Source: a bacterium (GTDB taxonomy: Bacteria; Elusimicrobiota; Elusimicrobia; UBA1565; UBA9628). From it: a DNA stretch of 64,000 bases. Below are positions 7,252-58,448 of this stretch, piece by piece. Under the pieces are notes generated by a model, which was given only the letters and a program-made list of their open reading frames with translations, had not been told where the DNA came from and made no database searches. How positions within the stretch are numbered: position 1 is the stretch's first letter; every line of letters begins with the position of its first letter. Location: NCBI GenBank assembly GCA_021846045.1, contig JAJZCM010000001.1, positions 54,457 to 118,456 of the forward strand, read 5' to 3'. A program made the position numbers and the translations under genes.

Positions 7252-7343
7252 GTAACTACTCACGTCACCCCGACGAAAGTCGGGGTCCAGTTTCATGAAA
7301 CACCGGATTCCGGCTTTCGCCGGAATGACGAACCTGAGCGGTT
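7252..7343 (+). repeat. RPE/MITE-like double-hairpin dispersed repeat, copy 1
   Basis: Sequence GTAACTACTCACGTCACCCCGACGAAAGTCGGGGTCCAG...GGATTCCGGCTTTCGCCGGAATGACGAACCTGAGC. The same ~90-nt unit recurs at 31711, 39392, 45691, 45889, 54707 and 57294. Confidence 0.85.
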
Positions 7344-8842
7344 GATTTCCGATGAGAGGCCTGAACTGCATTTCTAAGCCGTGAGATTACCTCTGAGTTA
7401 ATATCTTCCAAATTCAGTTTCCAAGCCCAGTTTCCGGAGGTCGTTGCCGGAATGTTCATTCTCGCTTCCGATCCGAGGCTTAAAACGTCTTGCATCGGAA
7501 TAATGGCTGTGTTGGCCGGCGAATCCAAAAGGGCTTGGATGAGCTTCCAATGATTCTCAGGATCAGATTTTGAGCTATCGGCGTAGACAAGCGCCCGCTT
7601 GACTTCTTCTTGAGGGCCGTTTTGGAGCCAGCCGTTGAGCGTGTCGTTGTCATGCGTTCCGGTGTAGGCGACGGAGTTCGGCGCATAATTTTTAGGCAAA
7701 AATTTTTCTTCGCCGCCAAAGGAAAATTGAAGAATGTTCATGCCGGGAAGATGAAACTCATCTCGCAATCGGTAGACGTCGTCGCCGGCAACGCCTAGAT
7801 CTTCTGCGATGATTTGAAATTCCGGCATCTGGGGGAGAATCGAGGAAAAGAAATCCGATCCCGGACCCTGGACCCATTGGCCTTTGACGGCGGTTTTTTC
7901 TCCGGCCGGAATGCGCCAGTAGCGGCAAAAGCCGATAAAATGGTCCAGGCGCACAGCGCTAAAACGTTGAGCGGAAATTTTAAGGCGATTTTTCCACCAT
8001 TCATAGCCGGATTCTTTTAGGATATCCCAACGATAAAGGGGGTTTCCCCAGAGCTGCCCGGTTTTTGAAAAATAATCAGGGGGAACTCCGGAAACTGCGA
8101 TTGGAGAACCTTGTTTGTCCAAATCGAAAATATTTTGGTGCGCCCAGACGTCCACGCTGTCTTGGGAGACGAAGATTGGGATGTCTCCAATTAGAGATAT
8201 TCCTTTTTCCTCGCAGGCGCTTCTGAAGCGTTTCCACTGCCGATCGAAGAGAAACTGCTCGAATTGATAGTAAAACGAGGTTTCGCCTAAAAAATGAAGA
8301 AGGTCTCTTTCCCAAAAGCGGAAATTGCGGGCGCGAATTTGTTCCGGCCACTCGGCCCAGGGCTTTTGCTTAAAACGCTCTTTAAGCGAGGAAAACCATG
8401 CGTAATCGTTGATCCAGAAGGATTCCCGGTCCAAAAACGAGTGAAATTCAGCCCAGCTTCCGGGGGGATTTTCTTTTTGAAAACGGGAAGAAGCCAGTCG
8501 TAAAACCTTTTCTTTTTCCATCAATGCTTGAGCTGAGCTCAAGCCTCTGAATGCGGGAATTTCCGCGCGGTTCAGAAATCCTTCTTCCGCCGCCAGATCA
8601 AGATTGATAAAAGAAGGGTTTCCGGCAAAAGCGGAGACGCTGCTGTAGGGAGAATTTCCAGTGCCCGTGGGATTAATTGGGAGCATTTGCCAGTATTTTT
8701 GCCCGGTCTCGGATAAAAAATCGATGAAACGGCGCGCCGTGGGGCCCAAATCCCCAGTTCCGACTTCCCCGGGCAAAGAACTGATAGGGAACAATACCCC
8801 GCAGAAACGATTAGTAAACAGGCTCAAATTTTCTTTTCTCAT
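7265..8842 (-). CDS. malQ: 4-alpha-glucanotransferase (amylomaltase)
   Basis: GH77 motifs are present: LPINPTG..SPYSS, GDIPIFV and HDNDT. The last ~25 codons and the stop codon are supplied by the repeat element (…AQVRHSGESRNPVFHETGPRLSSG*). Start chosen at MRKENLSLF. Confidence 0.85.
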   Translation of the reverse strand: MRKENLSLFTNRFCGVLFPISSLPGEVGTGDLGPTARRFIDFLSETGQKYWQMLPINPTGTGNSPYSSVSAFAGNPSFINLDLAAEEGFLNRAEIPAFRGLSSAQALMEKEKVLRLASSRFQKENPPGSWAEFHSFLDRESFWINDYAWFSSLKERFKQKPWAEWPEQIRARNFRFWERDLLHFLGETSFYYQFEQFLFDRQWKRFRSACEEKGISLIGDIPIFVSQDSVDVWAHQNIFDLDKQGSPIAVSGVPPDYFSKTGQLWGNPLYRWDILKESGYEWWKNRLKISAQRFSAVRLDHFIGFCRYWRIPAGEKTAVKGQWVQGPGSDFFSSILPQMPEFQIIAEDLGVAGDDVYRLRDEFHLPGMNILQFSFGGEEKFLPKNYAPNSVAYTGTHDNDTLNGWLQNGPQEEVKRALVYADSSKSDPENHWKLIQALLDSPANTAIIPMQDVLSLGSEARMNIPATTSGNWAWKLNLEDINSEVISRLRNAVQASHRKSTAQVRHSGESRNPVFHETGPRLSSG

Positions 8843-9938
8843 AATTTGCCCGGACGATAGAGACCAGATCGTTGGTATTATCGCCCTTATCATCGAAACG
8901 AGTCATCCCGATAATTCCATCGTACTCGGTTTCCCTGAGGGTCGCGATCATTTTTTTGCGGTCAAACCCCGCTTTCTGAAAGGCCGCGAGAGATATTTTG
9001 GCCGCTTCATAGGCATAGATATCGTAGGTGCGTGGGGTGGTTTTAAATAAGGAGCGATATTGAGAGATAAAGGGATCGGCGCCGGGAAGGAAATCAACGG
9101 GAACCCCACTGATGACAAAATAGGCTCCGTTGGAAGCGGGGCCGGCGAGCTTAAATAAAGTGTCTTCCTTGGATGCTCCGCCTGAAAAAAAGGTTATACC
9201 CAGACGGTTATCACGAAGAGATTTGAGAATGTTTGCCGCTTCCGGGTAAAACCCACCGAAGAAAAGGCCCTGCGGCTTTGAAGCCTCAAGCGCGCTTATG
9301 AGCCCTGAAAGATTGGGCGGGTTGGGGGGAAGAGCGACAAATCCTAGAATTTTTCCACCTTCTTTTTTAAAATCTGAACCAAAGGCTTCTGAAAATTCCA
9401 TTCCGTAAGAGCTTTGATCGTCAACAATAAAAAACGAATGGATGCCGAGACGGGAATAAGCAAAATGAGCGGCGAATTTCGCCTGGGATAAATCAGTCGG
9501 CGGCATGCGGAAAATACTTTTTTTCCATTTCCAAGAGGGGCTTTTTTGCTGGGCGGTGAGAACGCTATTGGCGGCAGAGGGCGTGATCATGGGAATTAAG
9601 GATTCGGCGTAGACAGGAGCCGCGGCTAAGCAAGAATCCGAAGTAAAGTCTCCGATGACGGCAAAGACTTTTGGGTTTTCCGTTATTTGCCCAGCAGCCT
9701 TGACCGCTCCTTGGGGCGTTCCTTGATCGTCGTAAGCGCGGACAACGATATTCCAAGAATTTTCATCGGAATCATTGAACCCCGAAGCGGCTAATTTAAC
9801 GGCGCGGACGATGCCGCCGCCTTCGGCGCCGATAGGACCGGACAGCGGAACGGCAACGGCCAAAATGGCATTGGGTTTGGGGTTTGAGCAAGCGAGGATA
9901 ATCCCCGCGGCCAAAAGGAGCGGAAAAACTTTTCGCAT
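8811..9938 (-). CDS. periplasmic substrate-binding lipoprotein, LivK/branched-chain amino acid ABC-type (type I PBP)
   Basis: A lipoprotein signal (MRKVFPLLLAAGIILAC) is followed by a Leu/Ile/Val-binding-protein-like fold pattern. No permease or ATPase genes are adjacent. Confidence 0.65.
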   Translation of the reverse strand: MRKVFPLLLAAGIILACSNPKPNAILAVAVPLSGPIGAEGGGIVRAVKLAASGFNDSDENSWNIVVRAYDDQGTPQGAVKAAGQITENPKVFAVIGDFTSDSCLAAAPVYAESLIPMITPSAANSVLTAQQKSPSWKWKKSIFRMPPTDLSQAKFAAHFAYSRLGIHSFFIVDDQSSYGMEFSEAFGSDFKKEGGKILGFVALPPNPPNLSGLISALEASKPQGLFFGGFYPEAANILKSLRDNRLGITFFSGGASKEDTLFKLAGPASNGAYFVISGVPVDFLPGADPFISQYRSLFKTTPRTYDIYAYEAAKISLAAFQKAGFDRKKMIATLRETEYDGIIGMTRFDDKGDNTNDLVSIVRANYEKRKFEPVY

Positions 9939-10117: not shown

Positions 10118-12130
10118 TCATGAGGCTGGAGACCCTGGTGGCATCGGAGATTTTGACGGCGGAAGCGCCGGTTTAGAAGGAGCCGGATTATTTTTGTCGT
10201 TTGCGGAATTTTTTGTCGAGAGCTGAGTTTTCTTAGAAGAAGATTCTTTGTTTGTTAAATAATCTCGCCCAGCGGCGATTGCAGCTCCAATAACTGCTCC
10301 CGCAGCGCTTCCTATGGCCGCCCCCGGAAGACCGCCCGTCATGGCGCCAAGGATTCCACCCGCAACTCCGACAATCGCCGATCCTTTGAGCATGTCTTTG
10401 ACGTAACTGGTCTTTTTAGGGAGGGAACTTTTGGGCTTTTCTTGTTTGGCCGCGTGGTTTTTTTGGATTGAAGGTTTCCGCATTTTGGAGTTACCCGCAG
10501 TTTTTTTAGAAGGAGTTTGGTTGGGCGTGACCGCTGCCGAAGGCCCGCTCTGCGATAGTGCAGAATCCGACTTATTCTGGGCGAGCTGATTGCCAATTGC
10601 GTTACCGTACGCCATTGTTTTTTGTTTGTTCAAACCGAACGTATCTTTCGGCGTTGGTTGTGGAGATGTGGTGGCGAGGATGCCTCCAGCGGCGATTGCA
10701 GCTCCAATAACTGCTCCCGCGGCGCTTCCTATGGCCGCCCCCGGAAGACCGCCCGTCATGGCGCCAAGGATTCCACCCGCAACTCCGACAATCGCCGCCC
10801 CTTTGAGCATGTCTTTGACGTAGCTGGTCTTTTTAGGGAGGGAACTTTTGGGCTTTTCTTGTTTGGCCGCGTGGTTTTTTGGGGCGGCTTTGTGATGAAT
10901 TGAAGGTTTCCGCATTTTGGAGTTGCCCGCAGTTTTTTTAGAAGGAGTTTGGTTGGGCGTGACCACTGCCGAAGGCCCGCTCTGCGATAGTGCAGAATCC
11001 GACTTATTCTGGGCGAGCTGATTGCCAATTGCGTTACCGTACGCCATTGTTTTTTGTTTGTTCAAACCGAACGTATCTTTCGGCGTTGGTTGTGGAGATG
11101 TGGTGGCGAGGATGCCTTCTGAATTGGGAGAAGACGCAATCGGCGCGGGGGGCTGGAGAGGCTTGGACGGCCCGCCATTGCTTAGGGGGCCAGCTGCAAG
11201 CCCGATTCCGGCTCCAAGGACGGCGGCGGTGATGATCAATCCTGGGGCGGCTCCAAATCCCGTGACCATCAGTCCCGCGGCCAAACCCAAAAGAAGGCCG
11301 GTGGCTATGCGGGAAGTGGCGATATAGTGGCCGACTTTATTAATTCCACCCCAAAGTTTAGCGAAAAAACCGGGTTTTGATTTCTTGGGTTTGTCGGACG
11401 GCGCTTTAGGCGCCGGCGGTGCGGCCACTGGTTTATTAACGTCTTGAGTGAAAGGATTTTGGTTGGAGGTTTGAGATTTCCCACTGGAAGGCGGCGCTGA
11501 TGGGGTTGTGGGGGTTCCTCCAGATGCGTTGGCTTGGCCTTGGGTTTGAGTGGCGAGATTTCCCATTCCTTTTGTTGGTGGGGGCGTCGGGGTTCCTTGA
11601 GCGGCGGTGGATTTGGCAGCTTGGCGGGCTGAACCCATTGCCGCCGACCCTGCGACTTTCTGGTTCAGGGCTTGTCTTCCTTCATTACCCATTCCTGAAT
11701 TGGCTGGATTGGGAGTTGGTCTGGCAATGGAGTCATCCAATTTTTTTTTCTCAGCCGCCGTGGGTTTATATTGTGCAAGAGCCCAAAGAGGAGAACCGGG
11801 CGCGTATTCGGTTATAATGGGCCAGTGATTGGTTATATTGACATTCCTCAGAACCATTCCATGCTTACCAGTTCCTTGAAGAATCGCTTGAGCAAATTTG
11901 CGGCGCGCTTGATTGTCAGCGGCCTCTAGGGCCAATGACTTATCATCCACGCGGGAGACGGAACCGCAGGCATAATAAATGTCCCCTTTCGGATGGATCA
12001 AATGTTTCGGGGATTTTATGCATTCCTGCATTAAGTCATTCGGTGTTGGATTTGCCCAAGAGCTGACTGGAAACAGGCCTAGAGCTAAAATCGGAAAAAC
12101 CGTGGAGATAATCGCGAGTTTCAGTTTCAT
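10118..12130 (-). CDS. secreted low-complexity glycine-zipper repeat protein (N-terminal globular domain, P/T/S/Q-rich linkers, repeated GxxxG membrane-like segments)
   Basis: Signal peptide MKLKLAIISTVFPILALGLFPVSSWA, then a ~100-aa globular domain, then a long compositionally biased region with two ~139-aa near-identical repeats. Each repeat ends in GAAIVGVAGGILGAMTGGLPGAAIGSAAGAVIGAAIAAGG. Start set at the Met preceding the signal peptide. Confidence 0.6.
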   Translation of the reverse strand: MKLKLAIISTVFPILALGLFPVSSWANPTPNDLMQECIKSPKHLIHPKGDIYYACGSVSRVDDKSLALEAADNQARRKFAQAILQGTGKHGMVLRNVNITNHWPIITEYAPGSPLWALAQYKPTAAEKKKLDDSIARPTPNPANSGMGNEGRQALNQKVAGSAAMGSARQAAKSTAAQGTPTPPPTKGMGNLATQTQGQANASGGTPTTPSAPPSSGKSQTSNQNPFTQDVNKPVAAPPAPKAPSDKPKKSKPGFFAKLWGGINKVGHYIATSRIATGLLLGLAAGLMVTGFGAAPGLIITAAVLGAGIGLAAGPLSNGGPSKPLQPPAPIASSPNSEGILATTSPQPTPKDTFGLNKQKTMAYGNAIGNQLAQNKSDSALSQSGPSAVVTPNQTPSKKTAGNSKMRKPSIHHKAAPKNHAAKQEKPKSSLPKKTSYVKDMLKGAAIVGVAGGILGAMTGGLPGAAIGSAAGAVIGAAIAAGGILATTSPQPTPKDTFGLNKQKTMAYGNAIGNQLAQNKSDSALSQSGPSAAVTPNQTPSKKTAGNSKMRKPSIQKNHAAKQEKPKSSLPKKTSYVKDMLKGSAIVGVAGGILGAMTGGLPGAAIGSAAGAVIGAAIAAGRDYLTNKESSSKKTQLSTKNSANDKNNPAPSKPALPPSKSPMPPGSPAS
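10268..11103. repeat. near-perfect tandem duplication, ~417-bp unit x2 (one 18-nt indel), inside the glycine-zipper gene
   Basis: Units 10268-10685 and 10686-11103 are almost identical at the nucleotide level. The antisense shadow ORFs 10339..10596 and 10756..11028 are 95% identical. Confidence 0.85.
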
Positions 12131-12256
12131 TATTGGCGCCTCCCGCCTTCGCCTTATAAATGTAATCCCATCCCCGCGTCCTGTCAAGGGCCTTTTTAAT
12201 TTTTTACTAATTTTTTACTTTTCAAGTGGGGCTGAGAATTTGTAACTTTACAACAC

Positions 12257-31710: not shown

Positions 31711-31772
31711 GCTCCGGAATCCAGAAGATCGCTGCTCTGGACCCCGACTTTCATCGGGGTGACGTGAGTTGT
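31711..31772 (-). repeat. degenerate/partial copy of the double-hairpin repeat family
   Basis: CCCCGACTTTCATCGGGGTGACGTGAGTTGT (reverse orientation, stem with a C-to-T change) plus a CCGGAATCCAG remnant. Confidence 0.6.
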
Positions 31773-31773
31773 T

Positions 31774-35674: not shown

Positions 35675-35720
35675 CAGAAAAGAATGTCTCTGTTACACTA
35701 ACTTAGGACACGGAGGAATC

Positions 35721-35939
35721 GTGGAAAAACCTCAGGAATTGCTTTTTGTTATAGAAGAATCGCCTGGAGGAGGCTATATCGCCTCGGCCCTTGGCCCAAG
35801 CATTGTTACTGAAGCCGATGATTGGGAGTCGCTTAAAAAACGGATATCCGATGCGGTTTTGTGCCATTTTGAAGATCCGGCATTTCGCCCTCGCATCATT
35901 CGGCTTCATGCGGTCAAGGATGAGTTTTTGGCTTTATGA
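35721..35939 (+). CDS. hicB: HicB-family antitoxin (UPF0150-like, short form)
   Basis: LLFVIEESPGGGYIASALGPSIVTEADDWESLKKRISDAVLCHFED matches the HicB N-terminal RNase-H-like fold pattern. 4-nt overlap with the downstream hicA. Confidence 0.55.
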   Translation: MEKPQELLFVIEESPGGGYIASALGPSIVTEADDWESLKKRISDAVLCHFEDPAFRPRIIRLHAVKDEFLAL

Positions 35940-36178
35940 GGCTTCCCCGCGATATTGGGGGAGAGGAACTGGCCCGCCTGCTTATTCGCTATGGTTACAT
36001 GGTGACCCGCCAAACTGGCAGCCATATTCGACTAACAACTCAGCGAGAGGGAGAGCATCATCTGACGATTCCAGCGCATACTGATCTTCGTTTAGGGACG
36101 CTTAATTCTATCCTCCAAGAAGTGTCTCGGCATATCAAGAAAGATAAGAACGACTTAATTCAAGAATTATGGCCGTGA
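35936..36178 (+). CDS. hicA: HicA-family mRNA interferase toxin
   Basis: GYMVTRQTGSHIRLT...HLTIPAH.DLRLGTLNSILQ fits the YcfA/HicA dsRBD-like motif set (GSH, P.H, GTL..IL). Confidence 0.65.
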   Translation: MRLPRDIGGEELARLLIRYGYMVTRQTGSHIRLTTQREGEHHLTIPAHTDLRLGTLNSILQEVSRHIKKDKNDLIQELWP

Positions 36179-36199
36179 CTGGGGAGTGAGGGTGTTTTA

Positions 36200-37222
36200 A
36201 TGTCGGATTCTCCGTTTTTTTCAATTGTCTTACCCACCTACAATCGCGCCGTGATGTTGCCGACGGCACTTGAAACTCTCCGTCGCCAAACATTTACTGA
36301 TTTTGAAGTTTTAATTGTTGATGATGGATCCACCGATAATACTCCTGAAATTGTTAAGACTTGGACGCAGGACTCGCGCTTCAAATATAAATTCTTAGAT
36401 CATGTCGGCAATATGCCATGCCGGAATAAAGCCCTTGAAATGGCTTCGGGGATATGGATTACCAATATTGATTCCGATGATCTTTGGCTGCCCAATAGGC
36501 TTGAGAAATTTGCGGCATATATTCAGCGGCATCCACAGGTGGGATTTATTTTCTCGAATGGGTATCTTTACCGGTTTGGGCGTATTATTGGGGTGGATTT
36601 TGATCCGTTGAAATCGCTTCCCGAGGGGAAAATGGCGGGGCATTATGCCGTGGGAAGATCGGGATTGCCGTATCTGACCACAAATCTCGCGATTCCCAGG
36701 GCTCTTTATGACAAATATGGCCATTATCGCAAAGATATGGTGATTCTCGACAATGAACTCTATGCGCGGATGCTCGCCGATGGAGTTGAAGTGGGCATTA
36801 TCTATGAGCCTTTGGCTATTCGCAGAATACATGGAGGCCAGGTTACTCATCAGTGGCTTGGCTCCTATCCGGAATCAATTGAAGCCCTAAAAGCCGCAAA
36901 GCCTTCTGCCGAGGTTTTTGATCAGGAGAAACTCAATCTTGTCCTAGAATTTTCTGATTACCTATGGCGTAATTTAGAGGGGAAAAAAGCGCGCTGTTTT
37001 ATGCTGGAAGAATTGGGAGAGAAGGCCCCAAAAACACGGCTTTATTTTCTTACTTTTATCCCGGCTCCCCTGCTGTTTTTAGCTAAAAAATTACGGAGAC
37101 TGTATTTAATCCTCATCCATTCCCCGATTTTTGCGAGCCCTGAGACCAAAAAAATATACCAGTTTCTTAATCCCTTGTTGATCAGCGAGGGAATTCGCGA
37201 GAGAGATAGTTGGTCGAGTTGA
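36200..37222 (+). CDS. GT2 glycosyltransferase
   Basis: FSIVLPTYNRAVML, VLIVDDGSTD, NIDSDD (DXD). Confidence 0.8.
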   Translation: MSDSPFFSIVLPTYNRAVMLPTALETLRRQTFTDFEVLIVDDGSTDNTPEIVKTWTQDSRFKYKFLDHVGNMPCRNKALEMASGIWITNIDSDDLWLPNRLEKFAAYIQRHPQVGFIFSNGYLYRFGRIIGVDFDPLKSLPEGKMAGHYAVGRSGLPYLTTNLAIPRALYDKYGHYRKDMVILDNELYARMLADGVEVGIIYEPLAIRRIHGGQVTHQWLGSYPESIEALKAAKPSAEVFDQEKLNLVLEFSDYLWRNLEGKKARCFMLEELGEKAPKTRLYFLTFIPAPLLFLAKKLRRLYLILIHSPIFASPETKKIYQFLNPLLISEGIRERDSWSS

Positions 37223-37233
37223 AGATCGTCGAT

Positions 37234-38784
37234 TCAATCAGCGGTGGCAATGCTTTTATTAAAAGAAACTCTCAAAATATTGGATGGTAAAATGGTTTGT
37301 TGCCCCATCGAGTGCTCGTATCTTTGAGGGGTTCGGCTTGGATTGAAGGGAATTTTTAGTTTTTGACGAACATCGGATTCCGTTTGATTGCGGAGCTTCA
37401 CTAAATCCTCAGCCGAGACGTAATCAGTATAAACAAAGGATTGATACCCGCCGTTGGGATCGCCTTTGTAGTAATCGGCGACTTCGGTGTAGTCCACTTC
37501 CTGGGAAAAAAGGCGATCTCCATTTTTCTTGTAAGTATAAACCCATAGATTCCTCTTGCCGGGGTCCTGAACTGCATGATCGTAATAGGGAGTTCCTGGG
37601 TAAGTGGTGATAATAGTCACGTCAAAATCATCGGGTTTGACTTCCAAAAGCCAGTCGCGCGTGTCTCGAATAGTCTCTGGCGATTCCCCTGGATGTCCGA
37701 TGGACATTAAGGCTTTTATCTTAAGTCCATGTCTGCGGGCGATTTCAACGCAGCGGGTATTTTCTTCCCGCGCGGCTTTTTTGTTGATATTTTGAAGAAT
37801 TCGGGGAGACCCAGATTCAAAACCGGTCAATATCCAACGAAAACCCGCTTTCCGCATCGCCTCGGCTTGTTCATCAGTAAAAAGCTGAGACTTAATAAAG
37901 CCCCTGAGGCGAAATTCAACGCCCAATTGGTCTTGGAGAGAACATATTTCACGCATCAGTTCGACCATTTTGGGATTGACGTTGAGTTCGTCATCATAGA
38001 GCATAAATCCGCGTACCCCGTAATCGCGGAACATTTGCTTCATTTCAAGAACGATGTTCTCGGTCGTCCGCATTCGTATTCGGCGCAGCATCGGAGATTC
38101 TCGCCCTCCGCAAAATCCGCATTCGAAAGGGCATCCAAGCTGCGCGATTAAAGACAACGCCCGCAGGCCTTCTATCTCATAGCGGTAGCTGTCAACGTCC
38201 ACAAGGCGTCTGGCGGGAAACGGCAATTCCGTTAGGCGCGCATTATTTAAAAAGAGCGGAGAATGCGGATCGTCGGCGTCGACGAGTTTTGGGGGATTCT
38301 CGCTTAAGGCGGAAAAAATCGCCTCCTCACCGTCTCCAGCAACTAAGATATCATAAAGTTCGGCCAGCTTTTGATAGGCGAGAGTCGCACGGCCCTCTAT
38401 CCCGCGACGTTTCTCTCCTTTGTAAGCGGCATTGACTAGAGTGATATGCGGTCCGCCGAGAATAATGCGCGCGCGTGGAGATTGGGCGCGTAAAACGCGC
38501 AGTATTTTGGTCGAAGCCGGGAGTTGTGGAGTTGTGGCGGTCAGTCCGAAAAATCGGGCTTTTGACGATGAGGCATGAAGGGCCGCGACTTCTTCATAGT
38601 TTTCGACTCCGGACAAGTCCAGCATTTCGACCGCATATCCCTCGCGCTCTAAAACGGCCGCGACCTTGAGTATGCCTAAAGACATAAAAACGCGCTCATC
38701 CAGCAAGAATAAAGAGGGCGGGACAATGAGGCAAACAGTTTGTCTTTCTCGACTATTGCGGGTGGAAGTCGCTCCGGCAAGCAT
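37234..38784 (-). CDS. B12-binding domain radical SAM protein (class B)
   Basis: N-terminal cobalamin-binding Rossmann region (CLIVPPSLF...GILKVAAVLEREGY) and the radical-SAM cluster motif CPFECGFCGG. Start chosen at an internal Met; the longest ORF runs to 38874. Confidence 0.75.
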   Translation of the reverse strand: MLAGATSTRNSRERQTVCLIVPPSLFLLDERVFMSLGILKVAAVLEREGYAVEMLDLSGVENYEEVAALHASSSKARFFGLTATTPQLPASTKILRVLRAQSPRARIILGGPHITLVNAAYKGEKRRGIEGRATLAYQKLAELYDILVAGDGEEAIFSALSENPPKLVDADDPHSPLFLNNARLTELPFPARRLVDVDSYRYEIEGLRALSLIAQLGCPFECGFCGGRESPMLRRIRMRTTENIVLEMKQMFRDYGVRGFMLYDDELNVNPKMVELMREICSLQDQLGVEFRLRGFIKSQLFTDEQAEAMRKAGFRWILTGFESGSPRILQNINKKAAREENTRCVEIARRHGLKIKALMSIGHPGESPETIRDTRDWLLEVKPDDFDVTIITTYPGTPYYDHAVQDPGKRNLWVYTYKKNGDRLFSQEVDYTEVADYYKGDPNGGYQSFVYTDYVSAEDLVKLRNQTESDVRQKLKIPFNPSRTPQRYEHSMGQQTILPSNILRVSFNKSIATAD

Positions 38785-38872
38785 AAGCGAATTATAGTAA
38801 AATGGAAATCCCTTTATGCTGCTACGAGAACGATTCCCAAGTCCGAGAGAACGCAAGAACAGGGCCGTTTTC

Positions 38873-39487
38873 ATGGACAGAGACGGTGTGATTATTAAAG
38901 AAGTAAATTACCTCTCGCGCCTTGAGGATATGAAAATTATCTCCGGAGTTGCGGATTCGATCGCGAAACTGAGAAAAGCGGGCTTTAAGATGATAGTTAT
39001 CAGCAATCAGTCGGCCGTCGCTCGCGGACGCCTGAGCCTTTTTAAACTTCATAAAATTACGCGCGTTTTACTCCAAATGATTCGGGAAAAAAATTCCAAG
39101 GCTTGCATTGACGCCGTTTACTATTGTCCGCATCATCCTGATTTCGGCAAACCCTGCTCTTGCCGGAAACCCGGGATTGGGCTTCTCCTTAAAGCGCAAA
39201 AAAAATTCAACATTGATTTGAAATCCTCCTATTTTGTCGGAGACTCAAGCGCCGATATCCTAACGGCTCGGCGGGCAGGATGCGTTCCTCTGCTGGTGAA
39301 AACGGGGAAAGGTGGAAAAGACGGACTCTACAAGGCAAAGCCGAAAAAAATATTTAAAAACCTTTCCGAGGCTTCCCGCTGGATTTTAACTGCTCAGGTT
39401 CGTCATTCCGGCGAAAGCCGGAATCCAGTTGGAAACCTGGACCCCGACTTTCGTCGGGGTGACGTGAGTAGTTGCGCTGGATTTTAA
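38873..39487 (+). CDS. gmhB: D-glycero-D-manno-heptose 1,7-bisphosphate phosphatase (HAD-IIIA)
   Basis: FMDRDGVI (DxD), ISNQS, YYCPHHPDFGKPCSCRKP (Zn-binding Cys cluster), FVGDSSAD. The last ~28 codons and the stop codon come from the repeat element (AQVRHSGESRNP...). Confidence 0.8.
   Translation: MDRDGVIIKEVNYLSRLEDMKIISGVADSIAKLRKAGFKMIVISNQSAVARGRLSLFKLHKITRVLLQMIREKNSKACIDAVYYCPHHPDFGKPCSCRKPGIGLLLKAQKKFNIDLKSSYFVGDSSADILTARRAGCVPLLVKTGKGGKDGLYKAKPKKIFKNLSEASRWILTAQVRHSGESRNPVGNLDPDFRRGDVSSCAGF
39392..39475 (-). repeat. double-hairpin dispersed repeat copy (reverse orientation)
   Basis: GTTCGTCATTCCGGCGAAAGCCGGAATCC...TGGACCCCGACTTTCGTCGGGGTGACGTGAGTAGTTGC. Confidence 0.85.
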
Positions 39488-43535: not shown

Positions 43536-44402
43536 ATGGCTTTCTTCTTCTCTTCAAACGACAACAGCAAAGACCAGCTCAAATCAGGTCAACCGTGGCC
43601 CGAAGAACTGGGAGTGCCTCATTGGGAATATCCTTACTTTTTATCTCAGGCAAAGGTCAAAGGAATCATCTTGAAGTTTTCAATCGTCATCCCCATTTAT
43701 AACGAAGCCGCCACGGCCAAAACTCTTATTGAAAAAGTCATTACCGCCGAGGTCCTCGGGCTCGAAAAAGAAATCATCATCGTAGAAGGCGCGTCCACGG
43801 ACGGAACGCGAGAAATCGCGCGTGAGTTTGAAAAAACGCCCGGCGTTCGCGTTATGTATGAAGAGCGTCCTTCCGGTAAAGGCAATGCCGTCAAAAAAGG
43901 GCTTTCCGCCGTTACCGGAGATTATATTCTAATTCAAGACGGAGATTTGGAATACGATGTCGCCGATTACCCGAAACTTCTTAAGCCTCTAATTGAAAAT
44001 CAAGCCGACGTTGTTTATGGATCTCGCGTTTTGCGCTCGCCGCAAAGCTGGCAGTTCAGGCGTTTTTCCGGTTTTGAGAGATTTTACGGTTTTTTCGTCA
44101 ATTTCGGCGGCGTTCTCTTTACCAATCTTTTTAATTTTCTCTATGGAACGCATTTAAGCGATGTAGCGACTATGTTTAAGATTTTTAAGGCCGATGATTT
44201 GCGAAGGATAAGCCTTAAGAGTTGCGGCTTCGACTACGATTGGGAAATTTCCGCCAAACTGGCAAAGAATAAGTCCACTCGATTTAAAGAAATTCCTGTT
44301 TTTTATAGAGCGCGTTCCCGCGCAGAGGGGAAGAAAATCAGGTTTTGGAGAGATGGGCTTAGCGTGTTTATCGCGATTTTGCGCTACCGATTTTCTGATT
44401 GA
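43536..44402 (+). CDS. GT2 glycosyltransferase, DPM1/ArnC-like
   Basis: FSIVIPIYNEAATA, IIIVEGASTDGT, ILIQDGDLEYD. The ATG at 43536 adds an atypical 47-aa N-terminus; the real start is probably the TTG near 43672, preceded by AAAGGA. Confidence 0.75.
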   Translation: MAFFFSSNDNSKDQLKSGQPWPEELGVPHWEYPYFLSQAKVKGIILKFSIVIPIYNEAATAKTLIEKVITAEVLGLEKEIIIVEGASTDGTREIAREFEKTPGVRVMYEERPSGKGNAVKKGLSAVTGDYILIQDGDLEYDVADYPKLLKPLIENQADVVYGSRVLRSPQSWQFRRFSGFERFYGFFVNFGGVLFTNLFNFLYGTHLSDVATMFKIFKADDLRRISLKSCGFDYDWEISAKLAKNKSTRFKEIPVFYRARSRAEGKKIRFWRDGLSVFIAILRYRFSD

Positions 44403-45667
44403 AAATGGAGTGAGAGAAGATAAGAAAATCCAAGAATTAAAAACGGCATTATCGGCAAACGGTATCGCATTTGGCTGACACTCACCATGTGAACTCCGAA
44501 TGTCATAGCGATAAAAAGCACGATGGGGTAGAATATCCGCCGTTCCTTGTTAAAAAGCTGCCAAGTTCCCCACAACCCGCCTATAATTAGCCAAGGCTCG
44601 AAGAAAAAGCTGATCGTAATGAGCGTTCCCCGCCTTAAGCCAATTGATGGATGATTTGCGGGATTTTGGAAATAAACTTTGTTCATGCGCGGATAAAAAC
44701 GCCAAAAATTAAGGCTTTTTAGAAGCCATTGATGAATCACTGCCTCGGGATGGGTGAGCATAAAACGGATGGCCGCTCTCCAATAAAGATTATCTTGATC
44801 GTGCGCTGAAAGGCGGGAAGCTTGCGCAAAAAGGGGGGTGCCTTTCAAATAGTGCATGGCGACTTGCGTGTCTTGTTCGTTTAAATCAAAAAGGAGCGTG
44901 CCATGCAAGAGGCTAATTCCTCCATGGCTATCCAAGGAAAAAGAGCCCGTTTCGATGCGGTTTCTCAAAGACCATGAAATTAGAAGGAGAGCCCAGAAAA
45001 AAGAAGACCAAAGGAGGCTTAAAAGAATCGGGCGGCTCCTCAGAGACGCAAAAATTGCGATGAGCCATATTCCGACCATGATGACCGCGCCTTCCGGGCG
45101 CGAAAGAGCGGCCAGGCCCAACGAAATTCCCGTGGCGGCGGCGTTCAAAAAACTTGCTTTTCCCTCGGACATCATTTGACATAACCGCCAGATTCCAAAA
45201 GTCATAAAAACAAGATAAGGAGTTTCCGAGAGCATCATTCCCCCATAATAAATGAAAAAGGGATAAACGGTAGAAATAAGTAGCGCGATTTTTCCGGCAA
45301 GTTTGGAACGGGTCAGCTTTTCAGTCATTTGCCAAACGGTCCAGACTAAAGCCATGTCAGGAATGAGAAGGCCAAGCCGGGCATAAAGAGGACGGTCTCC
45401 AAAGAGGCGAAAGAAAATAGAGAAATAAAAGGCTGGGATGGGGGAACCTGCCGAAGCGTTGGTTTGGCTGCCAAAAACGTTAAATTTCATCAAATTGAGG
45501 GCCGCTTGATGATAACCCGTTTCATCAATTTGATAAAAGCCGTTTCCTAGTTTTAAGGCGAAAATAAAACGAATCAGGAATGCCGCTAGAAAACAGGCCC
45601 AAGGCGGGATTTTTTCAATAAATCCAAAAATCTTCTTTAATGACGATGTATAATTGGACGTAAGCAT
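44384..45667 (-). CDS. GT-C membrane glycosyltransferase (ArnT/PMT-like)
   Basis: Polytopic, with an N-terminal loop YQIDETGYHQAAL typical of GT39/83 enzymes. Confidence 0.65.
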   Translation of the reverse strand: MLTSNYTSSLKKIFGFIEKIPPWACFLAAFLIRFIFALKLGNGFYQIDETGYHQAALNLMKFNVFGSQTNASAGSPIPAFYFSIFFRLFGDRPLYARLGLLIPDMALVWTVWQMTEKLTRSKLAGKIALLISTVYPFFIYYGGMMLSETPYLVFMTFGIWRLCQMMSEGKASFLNAAATGISLGLAALSRPEGAVIMVGIWLIAIFASLRSRPILLSLLWSSFFWALLLISWSLRNRIETGSFSLDSHGGISLLHGTLLFDLNEQDTQVAMHYLKGTPLFAQASRLSAHDQDNLYWRAAIRFMLTHPEAVIHQWLLKSLNFWRFYPRMNKVYFQNPANHPSIGLRRGTLITISFFFEPWLIIGGLWGTWQLFNKERRIFYPIVLFIAMTFGVHMVSVSQMRYRLPIMPFLILGFSYLLSLHFQSENR

Positions 45668-45690
45668 TCAGCGAACCCGTCCTGCAAAAG

Positions 45691-45776
45691 TCGTCACCCC
45701 GACGAAAGTCGGGGTCCAGGCCCACGCGAAAGTCTGGATTGCGGCTTTCGCCGCAATGACGGGTGAGTTTGCCGAA
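45691..45776 (+). repeat. variant copy of the double-hairpin repeat; stem 2 carries compensatory changes (TTGCGGC-TTTC-GCCGCAA)
   Basis: GTCACCCCGACGAAAGTCGGGGTCCAGG...TGGATTGCGGCTTTCGCCGCAATGACGGGTGAG. Confidence 0.8.
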
Positions 45777-45849
45777 TATCTACAATTGGACATTGACTTG
45801 GCACAGCCTATATAGACTATACTTATCCTAGGCCTCCTTCACAAATAAA

Positions 45850-47670
45850 ATGCCTGTCTTTAATCTTAAAGTATTTAATAAAAAGTCGGTAACTACTCAC
45901 GTCACCCCGACGAAAGTCGGGGTCCAGAGCAGCAATTTTCTGGATTCCGGCTTTCGCCGGAATGACGAACCTGGGCAGTTACAAAAGTCGTTTTGTATTG
46001 TAGTTGTTTTCCTTATTGCCTGGGGGTTGCGTGTTCTGGGCGTTCGATGGGGGCTTCCCAATATTTTTAACGGCGATGAGCCGCATTTTCTTAATCTCGC
46101 GGTTTCCTTTGGGCGCGGCTCTTTAAAGCCCTATGCTTTTAAATATCCGACTCTTTGGCCGTATTTTTTGTTTGTGTGTTATGGATTTTACTTTCTCTTT
46201 TGGTCTGGACTCGGGCTCTTGCATGGGATTACGGCTTTTGCCGGACTTTACGCTTGGCATCCGACGGGATTTTATCTCATCGCCCGCTTGGCGGCCGGTC
46301 TTCTTTCCATGGCCGCCGTTTTTGTCCTTTATCAAACGGGGAAAGAAGTAGAGGAGTTTTCCTGGGCATGGGTTTTTGCCGCTTTCGCTCCGCTTCTTAT
46401 TTATTCGGCTCACGAGGCGAAAGCCGACAGCCTGATGTTTTTCTTAATTTGTCTAGGCTGGCATTCGGCGGTGAAATTCTTTAAATCAGGGATGAGGAAA
46501 GATCATTTTTTTTCCGCCTTCTTTTTCGGGCTTGCGTTTTCAAGCCAGTTTACCGCTCTTCCGGCTTTAAGCGCGCTACTGGCTTTGGACTTTATTTCTC
46601 CAAAAAATACGCCTATAATCTGGGCCTTGGAGTCCGTTGGGATTTTTTCTCTGGCGTTTGTCTTGGGTTCTCCCTACGCAGTTTTTGATTTTCATAATTT
46701 CTGGTTCTGGATCCATATGCACAATCCCGAGGCGATGAACTCTCTTCGCTTTTGGACGAGACTAAGCGTGGCCAAGCGCCTCGGGCTCAATTTGCTGGGC
46801 TTTGAAGGATTTAATTGGGGGGCGGGGATTTTGGCTCTTTGGGGGCTTATTTCGTTTTTCTATCTTGATTTTAAGATGGCTTTGTTTCTTTTGTTTCCGG
46901 TTGCGCTTTCTTTCCTTGTCTTGGTTAATAATCCCGATGGAGGAGTTCCAAGATACTTGACTTCTGTTTTCCCGGCGCTTGATTTTATGGCCTCAGCGGG
47001 AATATTTTTCTTGTTAAAGGGAAAAAATCGGGCTTGGAAAACGATCATGGGCGGGCTAATCGCATCTTTTATTTTTTTCCCAGCTATTCTCAATGCTTGG
47101 AAGCGGGATAGGTTCATGAGACTTCCGGATACTCGAATGGAGGCGGAAAATTGGATATCAAAAAACATTCCCCAGGGGTCGGTTATTTTGGCTGATGAGC
47201 CCGATACCGAACCGAGGCTTTTAATGAATAAAGAAGAAGTGACGGCTTTGGCCGAGCGTACGAAACAGAATGGATCGCCCCGAAGTCGTCTTTATTTTGC
47301 CATGGCCCAAACTCATCCTGGGGGGGGGTATTGGGTTTACCGCATCAAGCGCTCTTCTTGGGATTTAGACATTTTCTTTACGGGGGAGGCGGATCTCTCG
47401 CAGAAAGATTCTCCCATGCTGAATATTTCCAAAGGGGTTGAGAGCGCCCGAGAGGCGGGAGTTCAATACGTCATCACTTCAAGTCAAGGCGTCAATCTAA
47501 AAAGAGCCATTGAGTTGCGAAATTTTTTTGATCAGCTGGGGTCAAAGGCTATTTTGCTTAAAGAATTTGATCCGGTCGCCGGGAAAACCGCCGGCCCGGT
47601 TCTCAAGGTATACCGGTTACCTGAGGCCCCAAATGGGGTGCCATTGCGGAATGAGCCGCGCCTCTTTTAA
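45850..47670 (+). CDS. GT-C membrane glycosyltransferase (ArnT/PMT-like)
   Basis: WGLPNIFNGDEPHF N-terminal loop and more than 10 TM helices. The ATG at 45850 reads through the repeat element in frame ([13 protein letters not shown]...); the true start may lie downstream of the element. Confidence 0.65.
   Translation: MPVFNLKVFNKKSVTTHVTPTKVGVQSSNFLDSGFRRNDEPGQLQKSFCIVVVFLIAWGLRVLGVRWGLPNIFNGDEPHFLNLAVSFGRGSLKPYAFKYPTLWPYFLFVCYGFYFLFWSGLGLLHGITAFAGLYAWHPTGFYLIARLAAGLLSMAAVFVLYQTGKEVEEFSWAWVFAAFAPLLIYSAHEAKADSLMFFLICLGWHSAVKFFKSGMRKDHFFSAFFFGLAFSSQFTALPALSALLALDFISPKNTPIIWALESVGIFSLAFVLGSPYAVFDFHNFWFWIHMHNPEAMNSLRFWTRLSVAKRLGLNLLGFEGFNWGAGILALWGLISFFYLDFKMALFLLFPVALSFLVLVNNPDGGVPRYLTSVFPALDFMASAGIFFLLKGKNRAWKTIMGGLIASFIFFPAILNAWKRDRFMRLPDTRMEAENWISKNIPQGSVILADEPDTEPRLLMNKEEVTALAERTKQNGSPRSRLYFAMAQTHPGGGYWVYRIKRSSWDLDIFFTGEADLSQKDSPMLNISKGVESAREAGVQYVITSSQGVNLKRAIELRNFFDQLGSKAILLKEFDPVAGKTAGPVLKVYRLPEAPNGVPLRNEPRLF
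45889..45982 (+). repeat. double-hairpin dispersed repeat copy
   Basis: GTAACTACTCACGTCACCCCGACGAAAGTCGGGGTCCAGAGCAGCAATTTTCTGGATTCCGGCTTTCGCCGGAATGACGAACCTGGGCAGTTAC. Confidence 0.85.
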
Positions 47671-57107: not shown

Positions 57108-58448
57108 ATGGAAAAAAAATCCGCCGAAGAAGCCGCTTTGGCCGGGCTTGAGGAGATTAAAAAAGAATATTACTCCCGCTTGGACTCTATTGATTTGAGT
57201 TTTTCGAGTCTCAAGGAAAATAAGTCTTCCCGCGATTACTTCTCGGATATCTTGACGGAGGAACCTCCAAGTTTATTGGAGATTCCTCCGGTCGTAACTA
57301 CTCACGTCACCCCGACGAAAGTCGGGGTCCAGAGCAACAATTTTCTGGATTCCGGCTTTCGGCCGCTTTCCAACGAACTTGGAAGCGGCGCTTCCTCCCC
57401 AATGCTCGGTCGCCGGAATGACGAACCTGAGCAGTTACCGCCGGTTAAAGAAATAATCCCGCCAAAACCTAAAGTCAATTTTTTCCCCGAATTTACGGAT
57501 GAGCCGGTTAGCGCCGCGGGTGAAAATAAGAATGAGGAAACCCAGTCTTCATTCATTATGAATGCGCCGGTGGAGAAGGAAACGCCTTTAGCCCAGGCGG
57601 ACGCGATTGCCACGCGCTTGGAAAATCTCCCCGTCTTGGGGCGCTCTTTCTCATTTTACAGTTTGCTTGTCTCTGGGGCGCTTCTTGTTGGCGCTATCTC
57701 TTGGGTGGGCTGGAATGCGTGGTCATCCTCATGGAAATCTTCTCTTCCTTTTGGCGAGCCGGTTGGCCTTGCCGCTGTTGGGGACAATCTGGCGTCTTTG
57801 GATCCCGCTGATAATCTTATTTATACCCTCAAAGGCTCTTCAGGAAAACCGCTAGGAAAATATCCTTTCGTTTGCGATCATGCTTCAGGGTTTGCCGGCT
57901 TTCAAAACGAGTTTTGGTGTTCAGAAGCTGACAAAGGCGATGTTCGGCGTTATTTCTTGGTCAATGGAAATGAGTATGAACTTCAGAGGGTTTATAAGAC
58001 TTTTGGAACCAAAATTGGAGCGCTCTATTCGGATGGAAATTATTTATGGGGCGCGGATGCGACTAGCGGGAAAATTTTTCAGTATTTAATTGTTAAGGCC
58101 CTGACGGGGATTCTTTTAACGCCCATTGACCGTTTTACCCTTCCCGATATTTCCCCGGCAGGACTTTATGCGTCTAATGGAATTTTATGGGTTTTAGACG
58201 CCAAAAGCAGGAGAATCAAGCGCTTTAAAATCTCGGTTTCAAAAGCGGAGCCCATTGATTCTTATGATCTAAACCAAAAGATAAAAGCGCTTGGCGCTCT
58301 TGCGGGGCTGTCCGTTAATGGGGAAAGAGTTTATATTCTAACCCGCCATCCCTCCAGAATTTTCAGCTTCGATCTTAAAAATTTGCCTCATCGCCGGTCG
58401 CCGATACATTTCCCAAGGGCGCCCGCGACGCTCGGCCTTCGGCCTTGA
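57108..58448 (+). CDS. membrane-anchored protein with C-terminal beta-propeller-like (NHL/SMP-30-like) domain; carries an in-frame repeat-element insertion
   Basis: Disordered N-terminus, one TM helix (FSFYSLLVSGALLVGAISWVGW), and C-terminal repeated strand motifs (LYASNGILWVLD, VNGERVYILT). The element at 57294-57439 is translated in the sense orientation. Confidence 0.5.
   Translation: MEKKSAEEAALAGLEEIKKEYYSRLDSIDLSFSSLKENKSSRDYFSDILTEEPPSLLEIPPVVTTHVTPTKVGVQSNNFLDSGFRPLSNELGSGASSPMLGRRNDEPEQLPPVKEIIPPKPKVNFFPEFTDEPVSAAGENKNEETQSSFIMNAPVEKETPLAQADAIATRLENLPVLGRSFSFYSLLVSGALLVGAISWVGWNAWSSSWKSSLPFGEPVGLAAVGDNLASLDPADNLIYTLKGSSGKPLGKYPFVCDHASGFAGFQNEFWCSEADKGDVRRYFLVNGNEYELQRVYKTFGTKIGALYSDGNYLWGADATSGKIFQYLIVKALTGILLTPIDRFTLPDISPAGLYASNGILWVLDAKSRRIKRFKISVSKAEPIDSYDLNQKIKALGALAGLSVNGERVYILTRHPSRIFSFDLKNLPHRRSPIHFPRAPATLGLRP
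57294..57439 (+). repeat. double-hairpin repeat copy with a nested 51-nt palindromic insertion inside stem-loop 2, within a CDS
   Basis: ...GGATTCCGGCTTTCG[GCCGCTTTCCAACGAACTTGGAAGCGGCG...CTCGGT]CGCCGGAATGACGAACCTGAGCAGTTAC. The insertion is itself an inverted repeat (GCCGCTTTCCAA / TTGGAAGCGGC). Confidence 0.85.

Follow-up and report, generated by a model that had tools for sequence, protein, structure and literature searches.

In the class of bacterial repetitive extragenic palindromes (REPs) known as CGTC-1, each unit has a CGTC tag, an 8-bp stem, a 4-nt loop and a CCA tail, and the units occur mainly as head-to-head dimers. [quoted passage not shown] The Neisseria repeat was later redefined as NTS, CGTCATTCCCGCGMAVGCGGGAATCYRG, and generalised to Ssn-related motifs, or SRMs (Chenal et al. 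2025, PMC11893778). SsnA, a GIY-YIG protein of about 94 amino acids, binds NTS only as single-stranded DNA (ssDNA), not as double-stranded DNA (dsDNA) or RNA, and cuts a few nucleotides upstream of it; sequence and hairpin both matter, in that activity is lost when the palindrome is changed with the hairpin kept, and the motif often borders ssn genes in a layout resembling an insertion sequence (IS), for example NTS-ssnA-NTS (PMC11893778). Here we describe two elements of this kind, A and B, in a 64,000-nucleotide stretch of an Elusimicrobiota genome (GCA_021846045.1, contig JAJZCM010000001.1, positions 54,457 to 118,456; the whole stretch is called the window below), where they have entered the first codons of two divergent glycosyltransferase genes, referred to as the GT-C and PMT_2 genes.

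The elements are recent insertions of small mobile palindromic repeats; they are selfish DNA, largely an ordinary case, and not regulatory RNA. [quoted passage not shown] The parts of the two elements are as follows.

45660..45783, forward strand: element A, 124 nt, a head-to-head hairpin pair framed by IS66-like inverted ends, GTAAGCATTCAGCGAACCCGTC on the left and, taken from the opposite strand, GTAGATATTCGGCAAACTCACC on the right
45692..45719, forward strand: hairpin unit 1 of element A, CGTCA CCCCGAC GAAA GTCGGGG TCCAG, CGTC-1 REP/SRM-like
45734..45761, reverse strand: hairpin unit 2 of element A, CGTCA TTGCGGC GAAA GCCGCAA TCCAG, a compensated variant
45889..45982, forward strand: element B, 94 nt, a head-to-head hairpin pair between the ends GTAACTACTCA ... 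TGGGCAGTTAC, translated in frame
45900..45927, forward strand: hairpin unit 1 of element B, CGTCA CCCCGAC GAAA GTCGGGG TCCAG
45940..45967, reverse strand: hairpin unit 2 of element B, CGTCA TTCCGGC GAAA GCCGGAA TCCAG, which fits the published SRM search pattern

A window-wide repeat search grouped elements A and B with further copies. The consensus of the main family is GTAACTACTCA CGTCA CCCCGAC GAAA GTCGGGG TCCAG (8–14 nt) CTGGA TTCCGGC TTTC GCCGGAA TGACG AACC TGAGCAGTTAC, and either strand of it reads as two inverted units of CGTCA, 7-nt stem, GAAA, stem and TCCAG. Hairpin 1, CCCCGACGAAAGTCGGGG, has seven matches in the window at up to three mismatches, against 0.09 expected by chance, and hairpin 2, TTCCGGCTTTCGCCGGAA, has six against 0.24 expected, five of them associated with elements. 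The hairpin pair is framed by GTAAGC... in element A and by GTAAC... in element B, and the TTGCGGC/GCCGCAA stem is a marker of the element A subfamily, not a change that arose at this locus. As ssDNA, element B is predicted to fold into a four-way junction consisting of an outer stem (the inverted ends), CGTCA/TGACG, the two hairpins, and TCCAG/CTGGA, with z = -6.7 and -6.0 on the two strands; for element A the values are -3.8 and -3.3. The CGTCA/TGACG and TCCAG/CTGGA pairings follow automatically from the head-to-head arrangement of the units, and are therefore no separate evidence for structure.

All 12 units in the window have the form CGTCA-stem-loop-stem-TCCAG, save that one ends in TCCGG. 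The hairpin ATTCCGGC-GAAA-GCCGGAAT fits the 8-bp stem of the CGTC-1 definition fully, its first two stem pairs being A/T and its loop 4 nt long, while ACCCCGAC-GAAA-GTCGGGGT has A.T first and C.G second, for which the definition leaves room by its wording "almost invariably" (PMC3733652). Head-to-head pairs make up six of the seven elements, the remaining one being a truncated pair. The published SRM pattern, HGTCWYN(0-2)YYVSBRHN(0-5)WNVSBRGN(0-2)RNCYNB (Chenal 2025), is matched by the four TTCCGGC units, compared with 0–1 matches per shuffle. A metagenome scan anchored on hairpin 1 returned more than 120 loci, and in five of these (L051, L055, L077, L105 and L117) an identical hairpin 1 adjoins a GIY-YIG gene (PF01541, about 98 aa), the minimal hairpin-gene-hairpin units being about 370 bp (L051) and 545 bp (L055) long. 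We also scanned a genome collection with ACTCACGTCA, GAAA and TCCAG fixed and both 7-nt stem halves free. This found 25 sites, in Dehalococcoidia, Sphingomonas, Luteibacter, Binatia and other lineages; the stems are perfectly complementary in 22 of them, with at least seven different stem sequences, and carry one mismatch in two, whereas the last (on a Flavobacteriaceae contig) is not a hairpin. Several sites have an inverted partner downstream. A profile search for Ssn-like proteins gave at least 7992 matches, the top 120 of which included none labelled Elusimicrobiota, and is uninformative for this genome. The fit to the CGTC-1 definition, the SRM matches and the presence of hairpin 1 beside GIY-YIG genes together make for a firm sequence-based assignment of the window hairpins to the CGTC-1 REP class, and a probable one to the SRMs.

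Other identities were considered and rejected. GTAG REPs and the REPIN-RAYT system were rejected on the tag, which is CGTC in every unit, and a terminator on the missing T tract; attC or integron sites, Correia elements and ends of the IS200/IS605 type were likewise rejected.

The history of the locus can be read from a relative, L147 (GCA_021829385.1), whose DNA lacks both elements. With 45660–45791 (132 nt) and 45889–45990 (102 nt) removed, the window gives one ungapped alignment of 667 nt to L147 at 97.6% identity, and each insertion is flanked by a duplicated octamer.

45652..45659 (left) and 45784..45791 (right), no strand: target-site duplication of element A, AATTGGAC, a single copy in the L147 empty site
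45881..45888 (left) and 45983..45990 (right), no strand: target-site duplication of element B, AAAAGTCG, a single copy in the L147 empty site

The ungapped match and the single target copy show that both insertions were precise, each with an 8-bp duplication. Elements A and B are independent insertions of two subfamilies, not tandem duplicates, and both inserted after the split from the 97.6%-identical relative. An earlier note on this DNA had reported two tandem copies: two related hairpin-pair elements do stand at the place it gave, but as separate events, and the upstream one extends beyond the 45691–45776 assigned to it, to 45660–45783, with inverted ends of its own. The protein sequences agree with this history. 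The closest homolog of the GT-C protein (P0001; 92% identity, 572 aa) reads MPAFNLKVFHKKS followed directly by FCIVVV, and at this junction the window protein has 34 additional residues, which are missing from all eight aligned GT-C homologs, every one of them starting at the equivalent methionine. The syntenic relatives L147–L150 (up to 21.7 kb each) contain no such hairpins, compared with 12 units in the 64-kb window, and the more distant relative L148 has empty sites for three further window copies.

The empty sites bear directly on the idea that the hairpin pair is a structured cis-regulatory RNA of the GT-C gene (a leader, or riboswitch-like) whose RNA fold is under selection. A stable fold with a GNRA-like GAAA loop, covariation, and a position at the 5' end of the gene are all what such an RNA would show, and Di Nocera et al. 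make the case for transcription of many REPs and a possible function as RNA. However, the element is missing from the orthologous gene of the 97.6%-identical relative and from eight of the eight aligned homologs, and copies also sit within genes or at their 3' ends, facing either way with respect to the genes. The two strands fold equally well, and a tally of the hairpin 2 haplotypes finds G.T wobbles equally on either strand (3 vs 3–4), which gives no sign that a single transcribed strand is under selection. Rfam at its gathering score has no match in the window, the best sub-threshold ones being DUF3577 (E = 0.33) and FtrB (E = 0.59), and Ssn, the characterised partner of the motif class, binds ssDNA but neither RNA nor dsDNA (PMC11893778). 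Regulation of the GT-C gene by such an RNA is thus highly improbable in our judgement. The earlier note had spoken of a structural RNA or DNA role, and it is the DNA half of this that fares better; the covariation of the hairpins is not to be read as evidence of a riboswitch.

The sub-threshold FtrB match lies at 45843–45991 of the window. The consensus of this Francisella small RNA (sRNA) family (Francisella sRNA B, RF02748) contains GUCAUUCCCGCG-uAGG-CGGGAAUC, a hairpin like those of SRMs and CGTC REPs, and the family may have been built on the same repeat class.

In the upstream copy, the second stem is TTGCGGC-TTTC-GCCGCAA where other copies have TTCCGGC-TTTC-GCCGGAA, and the paired C-to-G and G-to-C change that had been described there is indeed present. 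For a broader view of the stems, copies of hairpin 2 were gathered by an exact hairpin 1 and at least 9 of 10 matching flank bases, ignoring the stems themselves. Over the 24 distinct haplotypes, 97.4% of the cells are paired and double-sided changes occur at five of the eight pairs; 18 cells are doubly changed, as against 3 that are one-sided (wobble) and 5 that are unpaired, values that none of 500 shuffles reach, and in slid registers pairing falls to 19–47%. The excess of compensatory over single-sided changes, on which the earlier note had staked its case, is therefore found. Hairpin 1, represented by 11 haplotypes from the stem-free scan and drawn from several phyla, likewise has 18 doubly changed cells. 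These alignments indicate that the constraint on base pairing across lineages is real, and that it is a property of the repeat family and not of this locus. Some caution on the covariation is in order, since the CGTCA and TCCAG flanks and most stem positions are strongly conserved too. Selection on the structure rather than the sequence, as had been proposed, is not supported: pairing is constrained, but flanks and stems are conserved as well, and in Neisseria a change of palindrome abolishes activity (PMC11893778).

The compensated TTGCGGC/GCCGCAA stem could also have arisen in one step, without selection, by intrastrand templated repair of a quasi-palindrome. Such repair is an established mutational mechanism, by which perfect palindromes correct themselves through template switching, and half-changed stems, TTGCGGC...GCCGGAA in L077 and ...GCCGCAA in L073, show that single-sided intermediates exist. 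Against this, double changes are found at five of eight pairs across lineages, with loop and flanks fixed and 97% of cells paired, the architecture is kept across phyla with different stems, and mutagenesis in Neisseria shows that the palindrome matters for binding. Templated repair may supply mutations but does not explain their long-term retention, and we think it unlikely that it accounts for the compensated stem in place of selection for pairing.

The ends of the elements suggest how they may have moved. Both ends of element A are identical at 16 of 22 positions (ungapped, anchored at the tip) to the inverted repeat (IR) of ISPsk01, a member of the IS66 family, GTAAGCGTCCGGCGAACTCACC; by our own binomial estimate the chance of this is about 1e-6 per end. 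The terminal inverted repeats of element A are accordingly of the IS66 type (GTAAGCG...GCGAACTCACC). When viral contigs were scanned with a merged IR pattern, a 2.38-kb element bounded by the ISPsk01-type IR was found (L151), which encodes an IS66 transposase (NF033517, E = 3e-143) and an IS66 TnpB, and an IR variant in L155 is closer still to element A, with 20 of 22 positions identical to one end. IS66-family elements produce 8-bp target duplications, the length of both AATTGGAC and AAAAGTCG as defined by the empty site.

Elements A and B would on this evidence be IS66-type MITEs with an SRM hairpin pair as their interior, mobilised in trans by an IS66-family DDE transposase; we infer this enzyme from the ends and from the 8-bp duplications, both of which are of the IS66 kind. 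A cognate full-length IS66 element would be expected to have ends matching GTAAGCATTCAGCGAAC or GTAACTACTCA. The stems, including TTGCGGC/GCCGCAA, would stay paired because a trans-acting protein recognises the folded single-stranded hairpin with its CGTCA and TCCAG flanks, this protein being, in characterised members, the GIY-YIG ssDNA nuclease Ssn. The pairing constraint would then act on propagation of the repeat family and not on expression of the GT-C gene.

Several observations weigh against this interpretation. Neither an IS66 transposase nor a GIY-YIG gene (the latter sought by regular expression and tblastn) was found in the 64-kb window, where IS66-like ends occur only on the MITE copies, and the IS66 ends examined in L151 have no SRM hairpin, so that the combination is not a normal feature of IS66. 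The CCCCGAC units (hairpin 1) and the TTGCGGC variant fall outside the SRM pattern, as a result of their compensated stem changes. The ends of element B, GTAACTACTCACG and GTAACTGCCCAGG, are short and resemble IS66 only loosely: they open as a GTAAC-type IS66 IR, GTAACCGTCCGGGCA, does, but agree with it at no more than 7 of 13 and 10 of 13 positions. Three other window copies have direct repeats of more than 8 bp on their two sides (10–11, 10–13 and 16 bp), and a fixed 8-bp stagger does not explain those copies; part of the longer repeats may be chance identity of element tips and target, and the 16-bp repeat, with its ragged element ends (31711–31773), looks like the product of a different insertion process. 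Apart from these points, 53 of the 59 dimers taken from other lineages have no flanking duplication of at least 8 bp, close to the control, and the only convincing duplication among dimers beyond the window is in L067 (10 bp), so that generality is not shown; transposition with duplications may be peculiar to this hybrid family. In about 0.94 Mb of loci, no IS66-like or GTAAC ends beside hairpins were convincingly like those of the window, a BLAST search of plasmids with element A gave merely short, weak matches to the hairpins, and a scan of viral contigs for the element B end plus hairpin gave no matches.

Some of these observations would suit a different mobilising agent, namely the hairpin-specific GIY-YIG protein Ssn itself, with SRM-ssn-SRM as the autonomous unit, the dimer as its gene-less derivative and the GTAA ends as incidental. 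Variable direct repeats of 8–16 bp, as seen in the window, fit a non-DDE mechanism better, units in which two inverted hairpins flank only a GIY-YIG gene exist (L051, L055), and Chenal et al. pointed out the IS-like NTS-ssnA-NTS architecture (PMC11893778). But the 16/22 identity of the element A ends to IS66 IRs would then have to be set aside, and the two cleanest insertions have duplications of exactly 8 bp. Ssn is not known to have strand-transfer activity, and in Neisseria it cleaves a few nucleotides upstream of the motif, whereas the element ends lie 11–32 nt away; the 53 of 59 dimers that lack a flanking duplication count against this agent as well. We hold mobilisation by Ssn to be an unlikely explanation, and retain that of MITEs moved by an IS66-family transposase.

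A complete IS-like unit of another kind occupies positions 1–1277 of L105 (metagenome contig Ga0315906_10362859), with a homologous unit in L117. Inverted ends of about 55 nt, each with CGTCA-CCCCGACGAAAGTCGGGG-TCCAG, enclose an IS5-family DDE transposase (NF033580) and then a GIY-YIG gene, which shows that the hairpin/nuclease module also rides in another IS family.

The two insertions changed the beginnings of both glycosyltransferase genes, where the following features are found.

45850..47670, forward strand: GT-C (GT39/PMT_2-like) glycosyltransferase open reading frame (ORF), 606 aa, with the ancestral start codon
45665..45667, reverse strand: present ATG of the divergent PMT_2 gene 44384..45667, donated by the end of element A (MLTSNY...)
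45668..45793, reverse strand: remnant of the ancestral PMT_2 start, with ATG at 45791–45793, 41 codons through element A, and TGA at 45668–45670
45787..45814, forward strand: promoter-like TGGACA-16-TATATA, ancestral and identical in L147, its -35 overlapping the right target-site duplication of element A

Element B entered the GT-C gene at codon 13/14 and, with its duplication, added 102 nt that are open in frame, the element being read in its only fully open forward frame. The protein has thereby gained 34 hydrophilic residues between a short N-terminal tail and the first hydrophobic segment. It had been noted correctly that the ATG at 45850 precedes 45889 by 39 nt and that the ORF 45850–47670 reads through the copy in frame, but the claim (in the title of the earlier note) that the downstream ORF initiates inside a copy does not hold. 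The GT-C start codon is upstream of element B; it is the divergent gene 44384..45667, on the reverse strand, whose ATG lies inside the other copy. Element A entered codons 2–4 of this divergently transcribed PMT_2 gene (132 nt with the duplication). The gene call for 44384..45667 begins at the element-donated ATG, and the frame of the old ATG ends at the TGA of 45668–45670, which directly adjoins the new start (TGAATG). The N-terminus is now MLTSNYTSSLKK... (MLT-SNY...), where the L147 ortholog has MSNYASSLKK at the equivalent ATG. Neither glycosyltransferase gene appears to have been destroyed, despite insertion in its first codons, and the locus provides two clean cases of genes outlasting such an event, one by an in-frame addition of 34 residues and one by an element-donated start codon. 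The TGAATG layout at the PMT_2 start (45665–45793, reverse strand) is suited to termination-reinitiation. As for the promoter that had been placed at about 45795–45825, the TGGACA-16-TATATA motif exists but lies at 45787–45814, and a sigma-70 consensus scan did not call it, its sole calls being on the minus strand.

Five further copies of the family lie elsewhere in the window.

7252..7345, forward strand: family copy that overlaps the 4-alpha-glucanotransferase gene 7265..8893 (reverse strand) at that gene's 3' end
31711..31773, reverse strand: truncated family copy between direct repeats of 16 bp, ATGGAAAAAATTGACA; it keeps hairpin 1, with a T.G pair, and half of hairpin 2
39388..39475, reverse strand: family copy at the 3' end of a HAD-hydrolase gene, with a 10–13 bp direct repeat, not in L148
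54706..54797, forward strand: family copy between divergent genes, flanked by TGATTTTTGT (10–11 bp repeat), not in L148
57294..57438, forward strand: family copy within the gene that begins at 57108, read in the frame used for element B

The last 20 or so residues and the stop codon of the 4-alpha-glucanotransferase are encoded by the element, and no clear target duplication is visible at this copy. The copy at 31711–31773 is truncated at both ends and reads CCCCGAT-GAAA-GTCGGGG on the minus strand, with the T.G wobble that had been reported for it. In the copy at 57294–57438, the loop of hairpin 2 has received a nested in-frame insertion of 51 nt (GCCGCTTTCCAACGAACTTGGAAGCGGC..., itself a hairpin). 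The duplicated target in gene 57108, CCTCCGGTC / CCGCCGGTT, encodes Pro-Pro-Val on both sides and has diverged only at synonymous positions, which suggests that the region is translated and older. Insertions nested in the loop are found also in the metagenome copies L071 and L106, and the loop may be a hot spot.

The distribution of these copies raises the possibility that the host keeps the repeats for a REP-like function (protecting or terminating transcripts at their 3' ends, controlling supercoiling, or restricting how far incoming ssDNA recombines, as in Neisseria) and that their place around cell-envelope glycosylation genes is meaningful. Clusters of NTS in Neisseria border the genes of surface proteins and influence transformation by way of SsnA (PMC11893778); in the window there are seven copies in a 64-kb region rich in glycosyltransferase genes, and three of them are at gene 3' ends. 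The near-identical copies, the target duplications and the empty sites in close relatives are instead the marks of a recent selfish burst. Two copies break into the beginnings of genes, where an adaptive benefit is difficult to imagine, and the hairpins have no T-tract terminators after them. A host function thus seems to us quite improbable, and recent selfish spread the better account.

Three other features of the window were noted. Beside the truncated element, 31552–31677 consists of a 63-nt unit perfectly duplicated in tandem, within the part of a TldD/PmbA-like gene that encodes the C-terminus, and L148 has three copies of the unit. A segment of about 3.2 kb (35662–38863; HicA-like, GT2 and B12-binding radical SAM genes) is present in the window and not in the syntenic L148, and ends near the element at 39388–39475. 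Tandem direct repeats at 10269–11117, with units of 198–256 nt spaced by about 420 nt and 93–97% identical, lie inside a large minus-strand ORF (10118..12187) and are unrelated to the hairpins.

The filled site and its 97.6%-identical empty counterpart, the exact 8-bp duplications and the IS66-type ends yield a testable hypothesis of mobilisation, and the question of how CGTC-tagged REPs multiply (Neisseria dRS3/NTS, the Rickettsia RPEs, and those of many soil and groundwater bacteria) gains a concrete candidate in an IS66 transposase acting on a hairpin-pair MITE. If general, this would be the first concrete dispersal route for CGTC REPs, NTS-like repeats and RPEs, and if true, the hairpin pair, or Ssn acting on it, could take part in IS66-type transposition. 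That hairpins recognised by an ssDNA nuclease, enclosed by ends of the IS66 type and dispersed by transposition that duplicates the target, constitute a hybrid not described before is a suggestion we make tentatively, and rather doubt; in the literature we found no description of such ends combined with 8-bp duplications, a corresponding empty site, and occurrence in Elusimicrobiota. For annotation, peptides encoded by the elements (VTPTKVGVQ..., LDSGFRRNDE...) should be recognised as repeat-derived where they occur in ORFs.

Among the known systems, the REPINs and GTAG REP doublets (RAYT, IS200/IS605-like) resemble the window elements in having two inverted REP units, a larger hairpin and a dispersed non-autonomous unit, but the tag here is CGTC and not GTAG, and no RAYT is involved. 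To our knowledge REPINs make no target duplications, whereas the window elements do. With IS66 elements and their MITEs, the shared features are GTAAGC/GTAAC terminal inverted repeats (16/22 at both ends of element A) and 8-bp duplications; the window elements differ in having no transposase genes and an interior that consists wholly of an SRM hairpin pair, which is not in the L151 ends, and the ends of element B are merely 11–13 nt long and degenerate. The RPEs (Ogata et al. 2000, as reviewed in PMC2229807 and PMC10969869) are palindromes lying in frame in conserved protein genes and translated, as are the 34 residues added to the GT-C protein and the copy in the same frame of gene 57108, and RPE-4 and RPE-6 are themselves CGTC REPs. 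They are 105–146 bp long and restricted to Rickettsia, however, and their target duplication is listed as '?' in the Delihas review, whereas here it is explicit, with empty sites.

The NTS/SRM repeats and Ssn share with the window CGTCA-palindrome-TCCAG, the fit of the TTCCGGC units to the SRM pattern, and the CCCCGAC hairpin that flanks GIY-YIG genes in metagenomes, while the window has no ssn gene (PMC11893778). NTS repeats are rarely intragenic (2% in N. meningitidis) and most window copies touch coding sequence; mobility is merely hypothesised in that work (PMC11893778). The CGTC-1 REPs share with the window elements the unpaired CGTC tag, the 8-bp stem with A.T first, the 4-nt loop, the CCA tail, the head-to-head dimers and the occasional intragenic copies (PMC3733652). 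The second stem position is T.A there and C.G in window hairpin 1. The published class is mainly from Alphaproteobacteria plus four other phyla, 'Elusimicrobi' not occurring in the text of the paper, and that text gives neither target duplications nor a dedicated transposase (PMC3733652); the window dimers add inverted ends, 8-bp duplications and empty sites, and extend the repeat class to Elusimicrobiota. The hairpin units are thus members of a known and widespread class, and in-frame insertion of a palindrome is classic for RPEs. What is new is modest: a repeat class already known is found in Elusimicrobiota, in an architecture that is new and demonstrably mobile.

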